64,000 nucleotides of DNA from Ignavibacteria bacterium (GCA_016873805.1 VGVZ01000005.1:59593-123592); one strand, 5' to 3'; positions 24,622 through 28,951 are shown, counted from the stretch's first letter. The notes: generated by a model from the sequence alone, not told the origin. A program made the numbers and translations.

Positions 24622-25668
24622 ATGGTCGGAATCGTGGGATATGGCGCGTACCTTCCTCGCTACCGGATCAAAGCCGAGACGATTGCTCGGCAGTGGGGGG
24701 CAGATGCAGAGGCAATCAAGCGGGGGCTTCAACTCACCGAAAAAACCGTTCCCGGACAGGACGAGGACACGATCACAATTTCCGTGGAGGCGGCCCGCGG
24801 CGCGATCCAGAGGGCGCAGATCGATCCGCAGGAAATTGGCGCAGTCTACATCGGATCCGAATCCCATCCATACGCAGTCAAACCGAGCGGAACGGTTCTG
24901 ATTGACGCACTGGGAATTGGACCGCATGTTCATGTCGCAACAAATGAGTTCGCATGCAAGGCCGGTTCGGAGGCGATGTATGTGGCCTACAGCCATGTGA
25001 AGTCCGGAGAAATGAAATACGCACTCGGAATCGGGGCTGATACTTCCCAGGGGGCCCCCGGCGACGCTCTTGAGTATTCTGCTTCGGCGGGAGGAGCGGC
25101 GTTCATCATGGGGACCGAACGCGTCGCGGCAGAGATCCTTTTCACTCATTCGTACACTTCAGACACCCCTGATTTCTGGCGGCGCGAGGGTGAATTCTAT
25201 CCACGACACGCAGGACGATTCACCGGTGATCCGGCGTACTTCAAACACATTGTGGGAGCGGGGCAGGCTCTGCTGGAGAAATCGAAACTTGCGCCGAAGG
25301 ATTTCACACACGCCGTCTTTCACATGCCGAACGGAAAATTTCCGCAGGAAGCCGGTCGTCGACTGGGATTCACCAAGCAGCAACTGGAATTTGGATGGAT
25401 TGTGCCATTGATGGGCAACACCTACTCGGGTTCCTCCCCGACAGGACTTGCCGCGATCCTCGACGTGGCCAATCCGGGCGATCTCATCTTCATGGTGTCG
25501 TTTGGTTCGGGAGCGGGGAGTGATGGATTCGTCTATCGGGTGACCGAAGAGATCAAGGCGATAAAGGATCGCGCGCCGAAGGTGCGATCAATGCTGGACA
25601 ACGGCAAGATTTATCTGGACTACGGCCAGTACACGAAGCATAGACACAAAATCAAACTCAACGAATAA
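24622..25668 (+). CDS. Hydroxymethylglutaryl-CoA synthase, archaeal type
   Basis: [33 protein letters not shown] (catalytic Cys), [29 protein letters not shown]. Confidence 0.9.
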
Positions 25669-25679
25669 GGAGGCCCCCA

Positions 25680-26831
25680 ATGAGAGACGTCTATGTAATC
25701 GGGGCTGGGATGACGCCGTTCGGAGAATTGTGGAACAAGTCGATTCGCGAGATCTTCGTCGATGCGGCCATGTTGGCAATTGAAGATGCCGGTGTCGACC
25801 ACATCGATTCACTGTACGTTGGATCGATGTCTCCGGGATTGTTTGTCGGTCAGGAACATTTGGGACCGGTCGTCGCAGATTTCCTCGGGGTGACTCCAGT
25901 GCCGGCGACGCGCGTCGAATCGGCGTGCGCATCGGGCGGCGTATCGTTTCGGCAGGCTTTTCTCGAGGTGGCTTCGGGCGTGAGTGAGATTGTTCTTGCA
26001 GGAGGCGTGGAGAAAATGACCGATGGCGCCGACGTCACGGAGGCGCTTGCGACCGCAGCCGATCAGGAGTATGAAGTCTACCATGGGGTCACATTTCCAG
26101 GGTTGTACGCCATGATTGCGCGGGCCCACATGCACCAATTCGGGACGACACGCCAACAACTGGCGGAGGTCGCGGTGAAAAATCACCGAAATGGAATGAA
26201 GAATCCAAACGCGCAGTTTCGATCGGAAATCACAAATGAGCAAGTTGTAAAGTCCACGATGGTGGCGGATCCATTGCGGCTTCTCGATTGTTCACCCGTC
26301 AGCGATGGCGGCGCGGGAGTCATCCTGGCATCTGCCGACGTGGCAAAGAAAATGAAGAGCCGCGCTGTCAAGGTGATCGCCTCGACTCAGGCCTCGGACA
26401 CCATTGCCCTCCATGACCGAACCGACCTTACCACACTCGGTGCGGTAGTCCGTGCCGCCGAAAAAGCGTACGCTATGGCAGGGAAGAAGCCGAGCGACGT
26501 CAATCTCGCAGAAGTCCATGATTGTTTCACGATCGCAGAAATCGTGATCTCGGAGGATTTGGGATTCTTCGAGAAGGGGAAAGGGGGAGAGGCCGTTGAG
26601 AAAGGGTTGACCGCTCGAGAATGCGGAAAGATCCCCATCAATTCCAGCGGGGGGCTGAAATCGAAAGGACATCCTGTGGGCGCAACCGGCATTGCTCAGA
26701 TTATCGAACTCTACGAGCAACTCACAGGACGCGGCGGCGAGCGACAGGTGAAGAAGGCAAATATCGGTCTTGCCCAGAACATGGGTGGGAGCGGCGCCAG
26801 CTGTGTCATCCATATCCTGGAGGCCATATGA
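25680..26831 (+). CDS. Acetyl-CoA acetyltransferase (archaeal/SCP-x-type thiolase)
   Basis: [43 protein letters not shown]. Confidence 0.92.
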
Positions 26832-27217
26832 TCTCACCGCGATACGCAAGGGAAATACCACAGCGATATCAACTCGTGGCGGCGCGATGTACGTCGTGTG
26901 GAACAATCGGATTCCCTCCACGACGCGTCTGCAAACACTGCCGCGGCAGACAATTTGAGCCGACAAAGCTCGATAGTGATGGAAAAATCCTCACCTTCAC
27001 GATTATCCGCGTTGGGGCTGATCGGTTTTCGAAGCAGACCCCGTACGCCGTTGCCGTCATCGAGCTCAACGACGGCACTCGACTCACGGCGCAAGTAACC
27101 GATTGCGAGCTGGAAAGTCTTGAAATTGGGCAAAAAGTCCGGCTTGTTTTTCGCAAGATTCAGGAGGATGGAAAAGCAGGAATCCTCTGTTATGGCTACA
27201 AGGCAATCTGTGTCTGA
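26828..27217 (+). CDS. DUF35 Zn-ribbon/OB-fold protein (thiolase/HMGS scaffold subunit)
   Basis: [54 protein letters not shown] overlap with thiolase. Confidence 0.9.
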
Positions 27218-27259
27218 TTCCAACCCTTGTCCATAGACGTTCTCGATCAAGGAGCAGTT

Positions 27260-28621
27260 GTGAAGGAGAGTGTTCGCATTGCATCCGGTCAGGGTTTTTG
27301 GGGTGATCTTCCCAATGCGCCGATCGATCAGGTCACGAAGGGACCGATCGACTACATCATGATGGATTTTCTGGCGGAAGTAACGATGTCCATCATGCAG
27401 AAGCAGAAGAAGCGAAATCCTGAGCTTGGGTACGCCAGAGACCTCATAACAATCATTGATCAGATTCTGCCCGTCTGTGTGGAAAGGAAAATCAAGATTA
27501 TCACAAACGGAGGCGGAGCGAATCCGCGCGCTTGCCGCGATGCCGTGTTCGCTTGTGCCCGCACGCATGGCATCAAAGGGTTGAAGATTGGAACCGTGTA
27601 TGGCGACGACATCCTGCCTCGACTCGACGGCTTGCGCAAGAAGGGGATGTTGTTCACCAATCTGGAAACAGGTCGGACAATCGAGCATATCGGCCACAAG
27701 ATTCTAAGCGCGAATGTCTATTTTGGCGCGATGCCGATCGTGAAGGCCCTTCGCCAAGGAGCACAGATCGTCATCACGGGCCGCACGACCGACACCGGAT
27801 TGACCCTTGCTCCGATGATTCACGAATTCGGATGGAAACAAAACGAGTGGGACAAACTGGCCGCTGGCACCGTTGCCGGCCATATACTGGAATGCGGCGG
27901 CCAGGCGTCCGGCGGGAATTTTTCCGGTGATTGGCGTTCGGTTCCCGATCTGGCCCATATCGGCTTCCCGATCGCCGAGGCGCATGCGAACGGTGACGTC
28001 GTTATCACGAAACACGAAGCCACCGGTGGAATGGTAACGATGCAAACCGTGAAGGAGCAGTTGCTGTACGAAATTGGCGACCCACGTACGTACATTACTC
28101 CGGACTGCATCGCCGATTTCACATCGATCGAGTTGTCGGATGACGGGAAAGATCGGGTCAAGATCTCCGGCGTCAAAGGTCGGGCAGCAACGGATACGTA
28201 CAAAGTCTCAATGTCGTACCTGGACGGATATACGGCGTTCGGCACCCTCACGTATGCTTGGCCCGATGCCCTCGAGAAGGCAAAAGCGGCGGACGAAATC
28301 CTGAGAACCCGACTCAGCGATATGGGGCTGGCCTACGAAGAGATACGTTCCGAATTCCTGGGATACAATTCATGTCACGGTCCTCTCGCGCAAAAAATCG
28401 ATGATGTCAATGAAGTCGTCCTTCGCGTCGGAGTGCGCAGCCATGATCACAGGGCGGTGGAAGCCTTTGGGAGGGAGATCGCTCCCCTCATCCTCACAGG
28501 TCCACCGACCGTGACGGGATTTTCCGGAGGCCGGCCAAAACCGAGCGAGGTGATAGCGTACTGGCCGGCCCTGATTGCCAAACAGTGCGTCACGCCACGT
28601 GTGGTGGTGAAAGAGGTGTAA
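27260..28621 (+). CDS. AtuA/DUF1446 family protein (large subunit)
   Basis: VRIASGQGFWGD, DFLAEVTM, ITNGGGANP, SANVYFGA, TGRTTD, AGHILECGGQ, VKEQLLYEIGDP..YITPD; GGAG SD before GTG. Confidence 0.88.
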   Translation: MKESVRIASGQGFWGDLPNAPIDQVTKGPIDYIMMDFLAEVTMSIMQKQKKRNPELGYARDLITIIDQILPVCVERKIKIITNGGGANPRACRDAVFACARTHGIKGLKIGTVYGDDILPRLDGLRKKGMLFTNLETGRTIEHIGHKILSANVYFGAMPIVKALRQGAQIVITGRTTDTGLTLAPMIHEFGWKQNEWDKLAAGTVAGHILECGGQASGGNFSGDWRSVPDLAHIGFPIAEAHANGDVVITKHEATGGMVTMQTVKEQLLYEIGDPRTYITPDCIADFTSIELSDDGKDRVKISGVKGRAATDTYKVSMSYLDGYTAFGTLTYAWPDALEKAKAADEILRTRLSDMGLAYEEIRSEFLGYNSCHGPLAQKIDDVNEVVLRVGVRSHDHRAVEAFGREIAPLILTGPPTVTGFSGGRPKPSEVIAYWPALIAKQCVTPRVVVKEV

Positions 28622-28951
28622 ATGAAAGTGAAGCTTCTCGATATTTGTCATGCTCGTTCGGGAGACAAAGGGGACAGTGCGAATATTGGTCTCGTGGCGC
28701 GAAAGCCGGAATTCTATCCAATCCTCGAGCAATATGTTACGGCGGAGGCCGTGAAGAAACATTTTGACGGAATAGCCCTCGGGTCGGTCGAGCGATACGA
28801 GCTTCCCAATCTCTGGGCACTCAACTTTATCCTGAACAACGCCCTCGGTGGGGGCGGAACCCGCTCGTTGAAGAATGATGCGCAGGGGAAGACTCTATCC
28901 ACCGCCCTGCTCAGGATGGTAATCGATGTCAATGAATCAGTGGATCTGTAG
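28622..28951 (+). CDS. AtuA-related small ferredoxin-fold protein
   Basis: HARSGDKGD, VERYELPNL.ALNF, LGGGG..SL..DAQGK; starts immediately after the upstream stop. Confidence 0.85.
   Translation: MKVKLLDICHARSGDKGDSANIGLVARKPEFYPILEQYVTAEAVKKHFDGIALGSVERYELPNLWALNFILNNALGGGGTRSLKNDAQGKTLSTALLRMVIDVNESVDL

Follow-up and report, generated by a model that had tools for sequence, protein, structure and literature searches.

A split AtuA-family pair beside an archaeal-type HMG-CoA synthase triad in an Ignavibacteria genome: a proposed HMG-CoA-cleaving lyase

The described systems closest to the gene pair considered here belong to the AtuA family of two-domain or two-subunit enzymes. In Pseudomonas, AtuA is a single polypeptide of some 600 residues in which both domains are fused; it is encoded in the atu operon together with a geranyl-CoA carboxylase, and it has been tentatively assigned as a hydroxy-isohexenylglutaryl-CoA:acetate lyase. 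A two-subunit Cml converts citramalate directly into pyruvate and acetate, according to an excerpt of a preprint (10.64898/2026.01.16.699985), and the structure of CmlAB from Raoultella planticola has been solved (PDB 9ERQ/9EVF). In an excerpt of a further report, ThnQ and ThnS are listed as an "AtuA-like lyase" pair in the anaerobic naphthalene (thn) operon of strain N47 (PMC12016498).

Other known systems are also relevant. The classical HMG-CoA lyase (LiuE/HMGL), a TIM-barrel enzyme, yields acetoacetate and acetyl-CoA from 3-hydroxy-3-methylglutaryl-CoA (HMG-CoA), and LiuE was reported to carry both lyase activities. The AibA/AibB proteins of myxobacteria, which form a 3-methylglutaconyl-CoA decarboxylase and are members of the CoA-transferase family with a fold unrelated to that of AtuA, operate in a pathway around HMG-CoA and 3-methylglutaconyl-CoA, the metabolites that also concern us here. 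In archaea, a complex of thiolase, HMG-CoA synthase, and a DUF35 protein supplies the mevalonate pathway.

A five-gene unit

The window, a stretch of DNA of 64,000 nucleotides, comes from a lake-water Ignavibacteria genome that is 99% complete (G000). It holds a five-gene unit, entirely on the + strand, which consists of two separable modules: a triad of HMG-CoA synthase, thiolase, and DUF35 protein, and a split AtuA pair. The triad opens with an archaeal-type HMG-CoA synthase (24622..25668), which scores 492.7 bits against TIGR00748 (cut-off 353) and 515 bits against NF003274. Its stop codon lies 11 bp before the start of an archaeal-type acetoacetyl-CoA thiolase (25680..26831; PF00108, PF22691), which reaches 535 bits against NF004720 (cut-off 420) and 550.7 bits against NF053570, its most specific model, under the cut-off of 600. 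The thiolase TGA is overlapped, as ATGA, by the start codon of a DUF35 scaffold protein with a zinc ribbon and an OB fold (26828..27217; PF12172, PF01796).

Exactly 42 bp separate the DUF35 stop from the GTG start of the AtuA large subunit (27260..28621), which is preceded 5–10 bp upstream by AAGGAG. This subunit, the proposed catalytic one, matches PF07287 over profile positions 1–436 of 437 with 519.4 bits (cut-off 22.8). The small subunit, an AtuA ferredoxin-like domain encoded as a separate gene (28622..28951; PF23544, 109.4 bits, cut-off 27), has its ATG on the base directly 3′ of the large-subunit TAA (28619–28621). The original prediction of a five-gene unit, with a 42-bp gap and a small partner abutting the stop of the larger gene, is confirmed by these gene calls. 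It had also held that no terminator is evident between the DUF35 and DUF1446 (AtuA large-subunit) genes; a consensus terminator scan ran at background level (10 sites versus 7.3 ± 3.2 in shuffles) and left the intergenic gaps empty. One weak hairpin lies within the DUF35 gene (27126–27142), and GC content is uniform through the region. Outside the unit, aspS (aspartyl-tRNA synthetase; 22814..24586, + strand; PF00152, PF02938, PF01336) ends 35 bp before the synthase, and prfB (release factor 2; 28968..30072, + strand; PF03462, PF00472) begins with an ATG at 28968, 16 bp past the unit, and contains the sequence CTT TGA C at 29034–29040 as a site of +1 frameshifting.

Of 59 synthase-bearing loci of the Ignavibacteria type, 33 repeat the order of triad, large subunit, and small subunit, and the arrangement therefore exceeds chance; the pair lies within 5–6 kb of the triad in three more, and 14 of the 59 stand on contigs too short for adjacency to be judged. 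The reversed module order, pair and then triad, occurs in genome G329 and at locus L098, which is from Krumholzibacteriia. When 27 related AtuA loci are considered, prfB lies downstream of the pair in 25 and an aspS match upstream in 23, and the triad is held in just three. Triad adjacency is thus optional, although it recurs in two phyla and with either module first. The refuting condition set by the original prediction, absence of the adjacency in relatives, therefore has a mixed outcome: the adjacency is present in most that bear the triad and missing in most that bear AtuA.

Fold, family, and relatives of the AtuA pair

Both domains, PF07287 and PF23544, and the CmlA fold place the pair in the AtuA family, and its proteins match these two Pfam families only. 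Modeled with AF2 at a pLDDT of 96.9, the large subunit resembles a single solved fold, that of the "Citramalate lyase - ADP - pyruvate complex," whose chain 9evf_A is deposited under the names "AtuA family protein" and "Citramalate lyase, subunit A (cmlA)" (Foldseek E 8.6e-27, TM 0.79/0.79; next match E 5.8e-4). With CmlAB the pair shares the large-subunit fold, the Pfam family, and the two-subunit organization, and the motifs GR..D, ..ECG/ECA, and LYE..DP of the large subunit align with those of CmlA. There are also differences. The two large subunits are 15% identical, the small subunit here belongs to PF23544, and the methylaspartase-gene neighbors of CmlAB were not found in the relatives examined. 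As a counterpoint to the CoA ester proposed here, CmlA, the sole characterized relative, uses a free acid. A CmlAB orthologue was considered and rejected on the grounds of the 15% identity, the blank phmmer (single-sequence) comparison of the AtuA pair with CmlA and CmlB, the detection of CmlA by the large-subunit family profile only, at E 1.3e-13, the small-subunit profile, which matched no solved chain, and the gene context, in which the relatives gave no match to methylaspartate ammonia-lyase in the search described below.

The two subunits are predicted to form a heterodimer, a modeling check that the original prediction had called for. The modeled complex reaches an ipSAE of 0.94 versus 0.00 for the best control, a value that 58 of 80 complexes of solved structure attain, as do 2 of 110 pairs mismatched on purpose as a reference, with the caveat that this pass may reflect likeness because a similar complex, CmlAB, has already been solved. 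Partner pLDDT is at least 93, contacts agree between runs to at least 97%, and the modeled interface takes in invariant residues from both chains. Large and small domains are fused in five family members (P0124, P0125, P0165, P0194, and P0228), and P0195 carries the fusion with the small domain first. In two more (P0203, P0224), AtuA, the small domain, and an enoyl-CoA hydratase form a single protein, the hydratase part being nearest to isohexenylglutaconyl- and methylglutaconyl-CoA hydratases.

These observations bear on the reading that the pair, like CmlAB, cleaves a free hydroxy acid such as citramalate or free HMG independently of CoA, that it would have no part in acyl-CoA metabolism, and that its adjacency to the triad is inherited gene order only. 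The sole solved relative is indeed a citramalate lyase, and DUF1446 genes adjoin methylaspartate ammonia-lyase in enterobacteria and Dictyoglomus (in an excerpt of PMC4682846) and in Prevotella intermedia (in an excerpt of PMC10434189); moreover, aspS and prfB are housekeeping neighbors, of a kind whose order may be kept without a functional tie. However, the distance from CmlA and the lack of a solved chain for the small-subunit profile both weigh against it, and the hydratase fusions point to CoA-ester substrates. Methylaspartate ammonia-lyase (PF07476) was matched in none of the 41 relatives, in a search where no control matched, and in a search at a looser threshold with matching controls it exceeded the cut-off in none of five other Bacteroidota. 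Considering also the tight phyletic tie to a carboxylase and the complementarity with HMG-CoA lyase described below, we regard a free-acid substrate as improbable.

Pseudomonas AtuA shares with the pair the PF07287 and PF23544 families, the same proposed chemistry, and a homologous substrate, HMG-CoA being the methyl analogue of the substrate proposed for the Pseudomonas enzyme. In contrast to that fused protein and its atu operon, the pair here is split, lies between aspS and prfB, and co-occurs with a carboxylase of the methylcrotonyl-CoA carboxylase (MCC) type. ThnQ/ThnS resembles it in having two adjacent AtuA-like genes, an acyl-CoA pathway, and a proposed opening of a tertiary-alcohol CoA ester, as far as excerpts of two reports go (PMC12016498, PMC13689101), whereas its substrate is cyclic and its operon context differs; the likeness is one of description only.

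Carboxylase, lyase, and synthase across genomes

The genome carries, on a contig other than that of the AtuA pair, a carboxyltransferase of the MCC β clade. Against the MCC β chains of P. aeruginosa and human it reaches 565 and 555 bits, compared with 380 against geranyl-CoA carboxylase β and roughly 230–300 against most propionyl-CoA carboxylase β chains; its best PDB match, at 585 bits, is 9tps_A, which bears the deposited name of a propionyl-CoA carboxylase β. An acyl-CoA dehydrogenase gene adjoins it, whose product matches butyryl/short-chain types better (379 bits) than it does isovaleryl-CoA dehydrogenases (279–322). The carboxylase gene has no operon link to the AtuA pair in this genome, a counterpoint to be borne in mind. 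The hydration of 3-methylglutaconyl-CoA has a weak candidate in an enoyl-CoA hydratase of the window (60143..61042, + strand; PF00378, 203 bits), whose top NCBIfam matches include gamma-carboxygeranoyl-CoA hydratase, all under cut-off. It is not co-distributed with AtuA, being matched in 37 of the 41 relatives, including seven of the nine that lack both AtuA and MCC β; a second hydratase is matched in 36, including four of those nine. Neither the classical HMG-CoA lyase (NF004283) nor any HMGL-like domain protein was matched in the genome, so it may lack LeuA as well.

AtuA and the carboxylase are closely associated. Nine of the 41 relatives lack an MCC β-like gene, AtuA is likewise missing in all nine, and the only other genome without AtuA is G033. 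In a sample of 401 Bacteroidota genomes, 274 have MCC β, of which 148 carry AtuA only, 109 an HMG-CoA-lyase-like protein only, 15 both, and two neither, although just 33 of the 126 lyase-like matches stand above the curated cut-off; of the 127 genomes without MCC β, 121 have neither AtuA nor lyase. The alternation follows families, some being of AtuA type (f33, with AtuA in 58 of 61 and lyase in none of 61; f15, f16, f7, f24, f31) and others of lyase type (f26, with AtuA in none of 28 and lyase in all 28; f21, f23, f29, f27, f32, f12), and Fisher values overstate this complementarity because the sampled genomes are related. Apart from the 15 sample genomes, two relatives (G021, G025) also hold both AtuA and the classical lyase, and four AtuA genomes lack MCC β at the threshold used. 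Carboxyltransferase orthologues are 62–69% identical across AtuA-type and lyase-type families, and therefore the same carboxylase appears to be served by either lyase.

The character of this carboxylase bears on whether the pair belongs to the Atu type proper and cleaves larger 3-hydroxy-3-alkylglutaryl-CoA esters, derived from isoprenoid or other branched acids through a geranyl-CoA-type carboxylase, rather than HMG-CoA. The tentative assignment of Pseudomonas AtuA, the lyase pair listed in the naphthalene operon (PMC12016498, in excerpt), and the gamma-carboxygeranoyl-CoA hydratase among the hydratase matches are all consistent with such a role. The co-occurring carboxyltransferase, however, scores far higher against bacterial and human MCC β than against geranyl-CoA carboxylase β, and its orthologues are equally alike in AtuA-type and lyase-type families, which makes the larger esters a very unlikely substrate.

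The original prediction had put forward another reading as a possibility, in which the pair takes the place of AibAB after the triad and decarboxylates or isomerizes 3-methylglutaconyl-CoA, so that isovaleryl-CoA is made de novo as an iso-fatty-acid primer. The recurrence of the pair directly after the triad or within 5–6 kb of it, and the second gene order in G329 and L098, agree with this reading. So do two features of gene content about which the original prediction had asked: HMG-CoA reductase (PF00368) was found in none of 16 triad-bearing genomes, this one included (controls matched in five), and no family-I CoA-transferase of the AibAB type (PF01144) was matched in this genome. The genome also has no HMGL-like domain protein and may lack LeuA. 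In WOR-3 and Coatesbacteria loci, moreover, the triad adjoins MCC β, a hydratase, and biotin carboxylase, and therefore belongs to the 3-methylglutaconyl branch. Yet the pair does not depend on the triad. No HMG-CoA synthase of either type was found in 26 of the 31 AtuA-bearing relatives, where HMG-CoA would thus come only from the carboxylase side, and the archaeal-type synthase is absent in 159 of the 167 AtuA genomes of the Bacteroidota sample; overall it occurs in six of the 41 relatives and in eight of the 401. Conversely, G033 has the triad and no AtuA, and in five genomes from other phyla the triad stands beside MCC β, AtuA being absent. The distribution of the pair follows MCC β and is complementary to a cleavage enzyme, the known and proposed chemistry of its family is carbon–carbon cleavage and not decarboxylation, and a decarboxylation could be run by the carboxylase itself. 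A triad-dependent AibAB analogue is accordingly hard to uphold, and we give it little credence.

A proposed HMG-CoA lyase and the role of the triad

Cleavage of HMG-CoA, which the original prediction had included among its options, gains support from the co-distribution with MCC β and the complementarity with HMG-CoA lyase, both read from genome sequences. We consider it probable that the pair stands in for HMG-CoA lyase at the end of leucine/isovalerate breakdown, as its analogue: a heteromeric carbon–carbon lyase of the AtuA/CmlAB family, with HMG-CoA as its most likely substrate, which would close the MCC pathway in place of the classical lyase missing in this genome. Homology to HMGL was rejected, as the folds differ, and the proposed likeness is one of function and pathway position. 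Whereas the classical lyase gives acetoacetate and acetyl-CoA, an AtuA-type reaction would be expected to release the carboxymethyl arm as acetate and leave acetoacetyl-CoA. This regiochemistry is drawn by analogy from CmlAB and from what has been proposed for the Pseudomonas enzyme, and we put it forward tentatively, with somewhat less than even confidence.

The triad encodes in a single operon the same three families as the archaeal complex, its synthase at the equivalog level. In contrast to the archaeal system, the bacterial triads here (16 genomes) stand without a detected HMG-CoA reductase, and those of WOR-3 and Coatesbacteria lie beside MCC genes; the Ignavibacteria genome does encode IspH, an enzyme of the MEP route. 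The triad may be seen as an optional add-on that would make HMG-CoA from acetyl-CoA for a purpose other than mevalonate, and its thiolase could also consume the acetoacetyl-CoA freed by an AtuA lyase. The two modules would then meet at HMG-CoA and acetoacetyl-CoA. It should be noted that an acetate-releasing lyase co-expressed with the synthase would simply hydrolyze acetyl-CoA, a possible futile cycle.

A more speculative idea, which we hold to be doubtful, is that the bacterial triad is a third interchangeable partner of MCC, in addition to the two lyases, classical and AtuA-type. Leucine breakdown could in that case be run backwards from acetyl-CoA to isovaleryl-CoA without AibAB, toward leucine or iso-fatty-acid primers; alternatively, the complex could be reversed, so that HMG-CoA would give three acetyl-CoA with no thioester lost.

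If true, the presence of triad and AtuA lyase in one operon, as here, would make a two-way HMG-CoA node. As for the family at large, the original premise that AtuA has no assigned reaction is outdated: a tentative assignment in Pseudomonas and a solved citramalate lyase in CmlA mean that the family can no longer be called wholly orphan.

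The AtuA pair and the synthase triad between aspS and prfB

Between aspS (22814-24586) and prfB (28968-30072) lie five genes of the forward strand: an archaeal-type HMG-CoA synthase (24622-25668; TIGR00748, 492.7 bits against a cut-off of 353), a thiolase (25680-26831), a DUF35 protein (26828-27217) joined to the thiolase stop by an ATGA overlap, the large subunit of an AtuA-family protein (27260-28621, with a GTG start; PF07287, 519 bits), and its ferredoxin-like small subunit (28622-28951; PF23544, 109 bits). The first three are referred to here as the triad and the last two as the AtuA pair. 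The original prediction of a five-gene unit, with 42 bp between DUF35 and the large AtuA gene and the small gene starting directly after the stop of the large one, is confirmed exactly. Its remark that no terminator is evident also holds, as promoter and terminator scans of the window, ill-suited to Bacteroidota promoters, gave matches at background level and no terminator site in the intergenic gaps. The main frame of prfB is preceded by a 23-codon first frame, and the classical programmed +1 frameshift site, CTT TGA C, lies at 29034-29040. Composition is even across the window (GC 0.52-0.56), near homologues of the AtuA gene in public records are named Ignavibacteria or Bacteroidota, and the sequencing runs that contain this stretch are lake-water metagenomes by label.

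The triad and the AtuA pair are two separable modules. Across the genome that holds the window (3.2 Mb, 99% complete) and 40 relatives from the same family and order, AtuA occurs in 31 of 41 genomes and the archaeal-type HMG-CoA synthase in just six, and a model of the bacterial-type synthase matched those same six genes and no others. When the window proteins were compared against 29 fetched loci, the AtuA pair was present in 27, with prfB 3′ of it in 25 of these and aspS upstream in 23, the remaining four comprising three contig ends and one rearrangement. The triad accompanies the pair in only three of the 27 (G021, G035, and G025), and one relative, G033, has the order aspS-triad-prfB without AtuA. 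Immediately 5′ of the large-subunit gene in G037 (locus L030, 2765-2905), a 47-residue synthase remnant, 87% identical and with a stop codon nearby, indicates that the triad has been lost at least once. Beyond this case, the search of triad-less loci for remnants returned one short match, to a thiolase truncated where the contig of L032 ends, and nothing in the other 27 loci.

The locus of G025 (L013) is more widely spaced, with 7.7 kb between DUF35 and the large AtuA gene and 4.3 kb between the two AtuA genes. The inserts responsible (3063-7380 and 8730-16350) carry defence and mobile genes, among them a type III restriction-modification system, HepT/MNT toxin-antitoxin genes, methyltransferases, an OLD-family nuclease, and a CAT-like acetyltransferase, a gene content that offers no pathway clue. 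The aspS-prfB interval behaves like an insertion hot spot.

Fold and assembly of the AtuA pair

The window pair belongs to the AtuA family, whose role has, to our knowledge, not been settled since the first accounts of the atu cluster in the 2000s. A single-sequence search with AtuA found no solved structures. A full HMMER search gathered 6296 proteins at E <= 0.001, and an AF2 model of the large subunit from an 86-sequence alignment built therefrom reached a pLDDT of 96.9. Foldseek returned a single real match for this model, chain 9evf_A, "Citramalate lyase - ADP - pyruvate complex" (E 8.6e-27, TM 0.79, 15% identity; runner-up E 5.8e-4), and the AtuA family profile matched the same chain, CmlA, at E 1.3e-13. 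The corresponding search of solved chains with a small-subunit profile (alignment A3) found no relative.

A preprint describes the two-subunit Cml of Raoultella planticola, a gift from the Berg laboratory, as converting citramalate directly to pyruvate and acetate (10.64898/2026.01.16.699985), and ThnQ/ThnS are entered as an "AtuA-like lyase" pair in a published listing (PMC12016498). With citramalate lyase CmlA in the family and this earlier literature at hand, the original prediction's statement that AtuA has no assigned reaction no longer holds. Two further papers place DUF1446 genes next to methylaspartase (PMC4682846; PMC10434189); methylaspartase was found neither in the relatives nor in five other Bacteroidota, and a methylaspartase link for the pair was dropped on that account. 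The window pair is not an orthologue of CmlAB, a solved but distant relative whose substrate is a free acid, nor is it of the Pseudomonas atu operon type, and it is unrelated in fold to both HMG-CoA lyase and AibAB.

The two AtuA genes are predicted to encode one enzyme. The heterodimer envisaged in the original prediction was modelled with an ipSAE of 0.94 against 0.00 for the best control, a mark that 58 of 80 solved complexes and two of 110 mismatched pairs attained, although this pass may reflect likeness because CmlAB has already been solved. Partner pLDDT was at least 93 and contact agreement between runs at least 97%, and the modelled interface sets the invariant HARSGDKG and GGGGT motifs of the small subunit beside the invariant E40, Q215, and Y270/E271 of the large subunit. 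Fused large/small forms are known in both domain orders, and five other Bacteroidota carry the small-subunit gene unlinked to the large one. The family also includes unusual architectures, such as a 1257-aa protein with Ser/Thr kinase, TPR, and AtuA parts (P0123) and one with the small domain ahead of the large (P0195). At three loci from Bacteroidota outside Ignavibacteria (L050, L057, and L059), the genes after that of the large subunit encode an amine-oxidase-like flavoprotein, an ABC exporter, and a protein of metallo-beta-lactamase fold, with the small-subunit gene distant on the chromosome.

AtuA and HMG-CoA lyase across Bacteroidota

We propose that the AtuA pair replaces HMG-CoA lyase at the end of leucine breakdown, a reading that we consider, on balance, moderately likely. 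In the window's genome the HMG-CoA lyase model, which matched in 14 of 14 control genomes, found no match, not even a weak HMGL-like domain. Given that no such domain was found, this genome may lack LeuA-type synthases and hence may be a leucine auxotroph. Neither HMG-CoA reductase nor a family-I CoA-transferase was found there, and IspH of the MEP route is present. A carboxyltransferase of this genome belongs to the clade of the methylcrotonyl-CoA carboxylase β subunit (MCC β): against PDB chains it scores 565 bits with bacterial and 555 with human MCC β, compared with 380 for geranyl-CoA carboxylase β and about 230-300 for most propionyl-CoA carboxylase β chains, the top match (585 bits) being deposited under a propionyl-CoA carboxylase name. 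The adjoining acyl-CoA dehydrogenase gene is more butyryl-CoA- than isovaleryl-CoA-dehydrogenase-like, and the AtuA pair and the carboxylase genes are not linked in this genome.

The MCC β-like gene is missing in nine of the 41 genomes, all nine of them without AtuA; the only further genome that lacks AtuA is G033. An evenly drawn sample of 401 genomes covers the phylum Bacteroidota. Among the 274 with MCC β, 148 carry AtuA only, 109 an HMG-CoA-lyase-like gene only, 15 both, and two neither; among the 127 without it, the corresponding numbers are four, two, none, and 121, with only 33 of the 126 lyase-like matches lying above the curated cut-off. Fisher values for this pattern overstate the case, as the sampled genomes are related. 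Whole families are one-sided, either AtuA-type (f33, with AtuA in 58 of 61 genomes and lyase in none of 61, and f15, f16, and f7) or lyase-type (f26, with AtuA in none of 28 and lyase in all 28, and f21, f23, f29, and f12, the last from the window's own class), and both lyase types were met in 17 genomes, these 15 of the sample together with G021 and G025. The counts and the family-by-family split have the form of a non-orthologous replacement, with AtuA in the place of HMG-CoA lyase.

In two proteins (P0203 and P0224), AtuA, the small domain, and an enoyl-CoA hydratase form one chain, and the hydratase part most resembles isohexenylglutaconyl- and methylglutaconyl-CoA hydratases. These fusions agree with the proposed replacement; the hydratase step is the one that makes the lyase's substrate. 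The two enoyl-CoA hydratases of the window's genome are distributed in a manner that does not follow AtuA or MCC β, and with NCBIfam matches below cut-offs and uninformative PDB matches they take no specific name. Their distribution counts against the proposed replacement, as do the butyryl-CoA-like dehydrogenase, the separation of pair and carboxylase genes, the distance and free-acid substrate of CmlAB, the genomes with both lyase types, the few lyase-like matches above the cut-off, and the relatedness of the sampled genomes. A literature search, largely of papers outside subscription journals, found nothing linking AtuA with both HMG-CoA lyase and leucine. Three elements are new: the counts of AtuA/lyase complementarity across the phylum, the split form of the enzyme next to prfB, and its pairing, recurrent yet optional, with an HMG-CoA synthase triad that comes without a reductase.

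Partners of the triad

A scan of species-representative genomes bearing the synthase yielded 80 loci, 59 of Ignavibacteria type and 21 from other phyla (by record name Krumholzibacteriota, WOR-3, Coatesbacteria, Fibrobacteraceae, Gemmatimonadales, Calditrichota, and Kapabacteria). In 33 of the 59 the two AtuA genes come straight after the triad, and in three the pair is 5-6 kb away; the pair is absent from six loci with at least 3 kb of downstream sequence and three with 1.5-3 kb, and 14 are too short. The other phyla show neither arrangement, the pair being absent from 16 loci with at least 3 kb downstream and one with 1.5-3 kb, three being too short, and the last (L098) having the pair upstream of the triad. 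Pair-then-triad order is also seen in G329, where the triad is far more divergent (62% identity). That adjacency recurs in two gene orders and two phyla speaks for a functional tie of some kind between triad and pair. Presence and absence alone do not: 11 of 12 other triad genomes have AtuA, compared with a class background of about 79% (77 of 98), a difference that is not significant (P ~0.2). Upstream of the triad, one lineage of Ignavibacteria-type loci carries aspS and another pcm-miaA, the latter in Ignavibacteriaceae and Melioribacter (L040, L044, L045, and many of L069-L136), where the triad lies directly 3′; miaA encodes tRNA dimethylallyltransferase, which uses DMAPP as substrate.

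The wider original prediction, an HMG-CoA pathway without mevalonate in which AtuA is the triad's partner, is partly supported. Its first half stands, with a lack of HMG-CoA reductase seen in all 16 triad-bearing bacterial genomes tested. For its second half, gene neighbourhoods point to the carboxylase rather than AtuA as the partner. At WOR-3 and Coatesbacteria loci (L130:8001-14838, L123:8001-12659, L111:6503-12941) the triad directly precedes an MCC β-like carboxyltransferase, with a LiuC-like hydratase and biotin carboxylase also 3′ of it in Coatesbacteria (L130) and an acyl-CoA dehydrogenase upstream in L111. Five triad genomes of this type, with completeness not on record, have neither AtuA nor the classical lyase, and HMG-CoA reductase is also absent; G033 likewise combines MCC β and triad with neither lyase. 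Triads beside MCC genes, and genomes with MCC β and triad that have neither lyase, place the triad in the 3-methylglutaconyl branch. Co-expression of the synthase with an acetate-releasing lyase would constitute a futile cycle, a point against the proposed lyase role.

A bacterial genome that carries the archaeal-type HMG-CoA synthase trio should not on that account be credited with a mevalonate pathway. The proposed lyase role of AtuA is testable with HMG-CoA, a simple and commercially available substrate, and genetically through rescue of an HMG-CoA-lyase mutant. If the lyase releases acetate, re-activation of acetoacetate would not be needed. Were the proposal true, more than one third of the sampled Bacteroidota (148 + 15 of 401) would end leucine breakdown with an AtuA enzyme, the pipeline name "acyclic terpene utilization protein" would mislabel this step, and metabolic models of such organisms would miss it.
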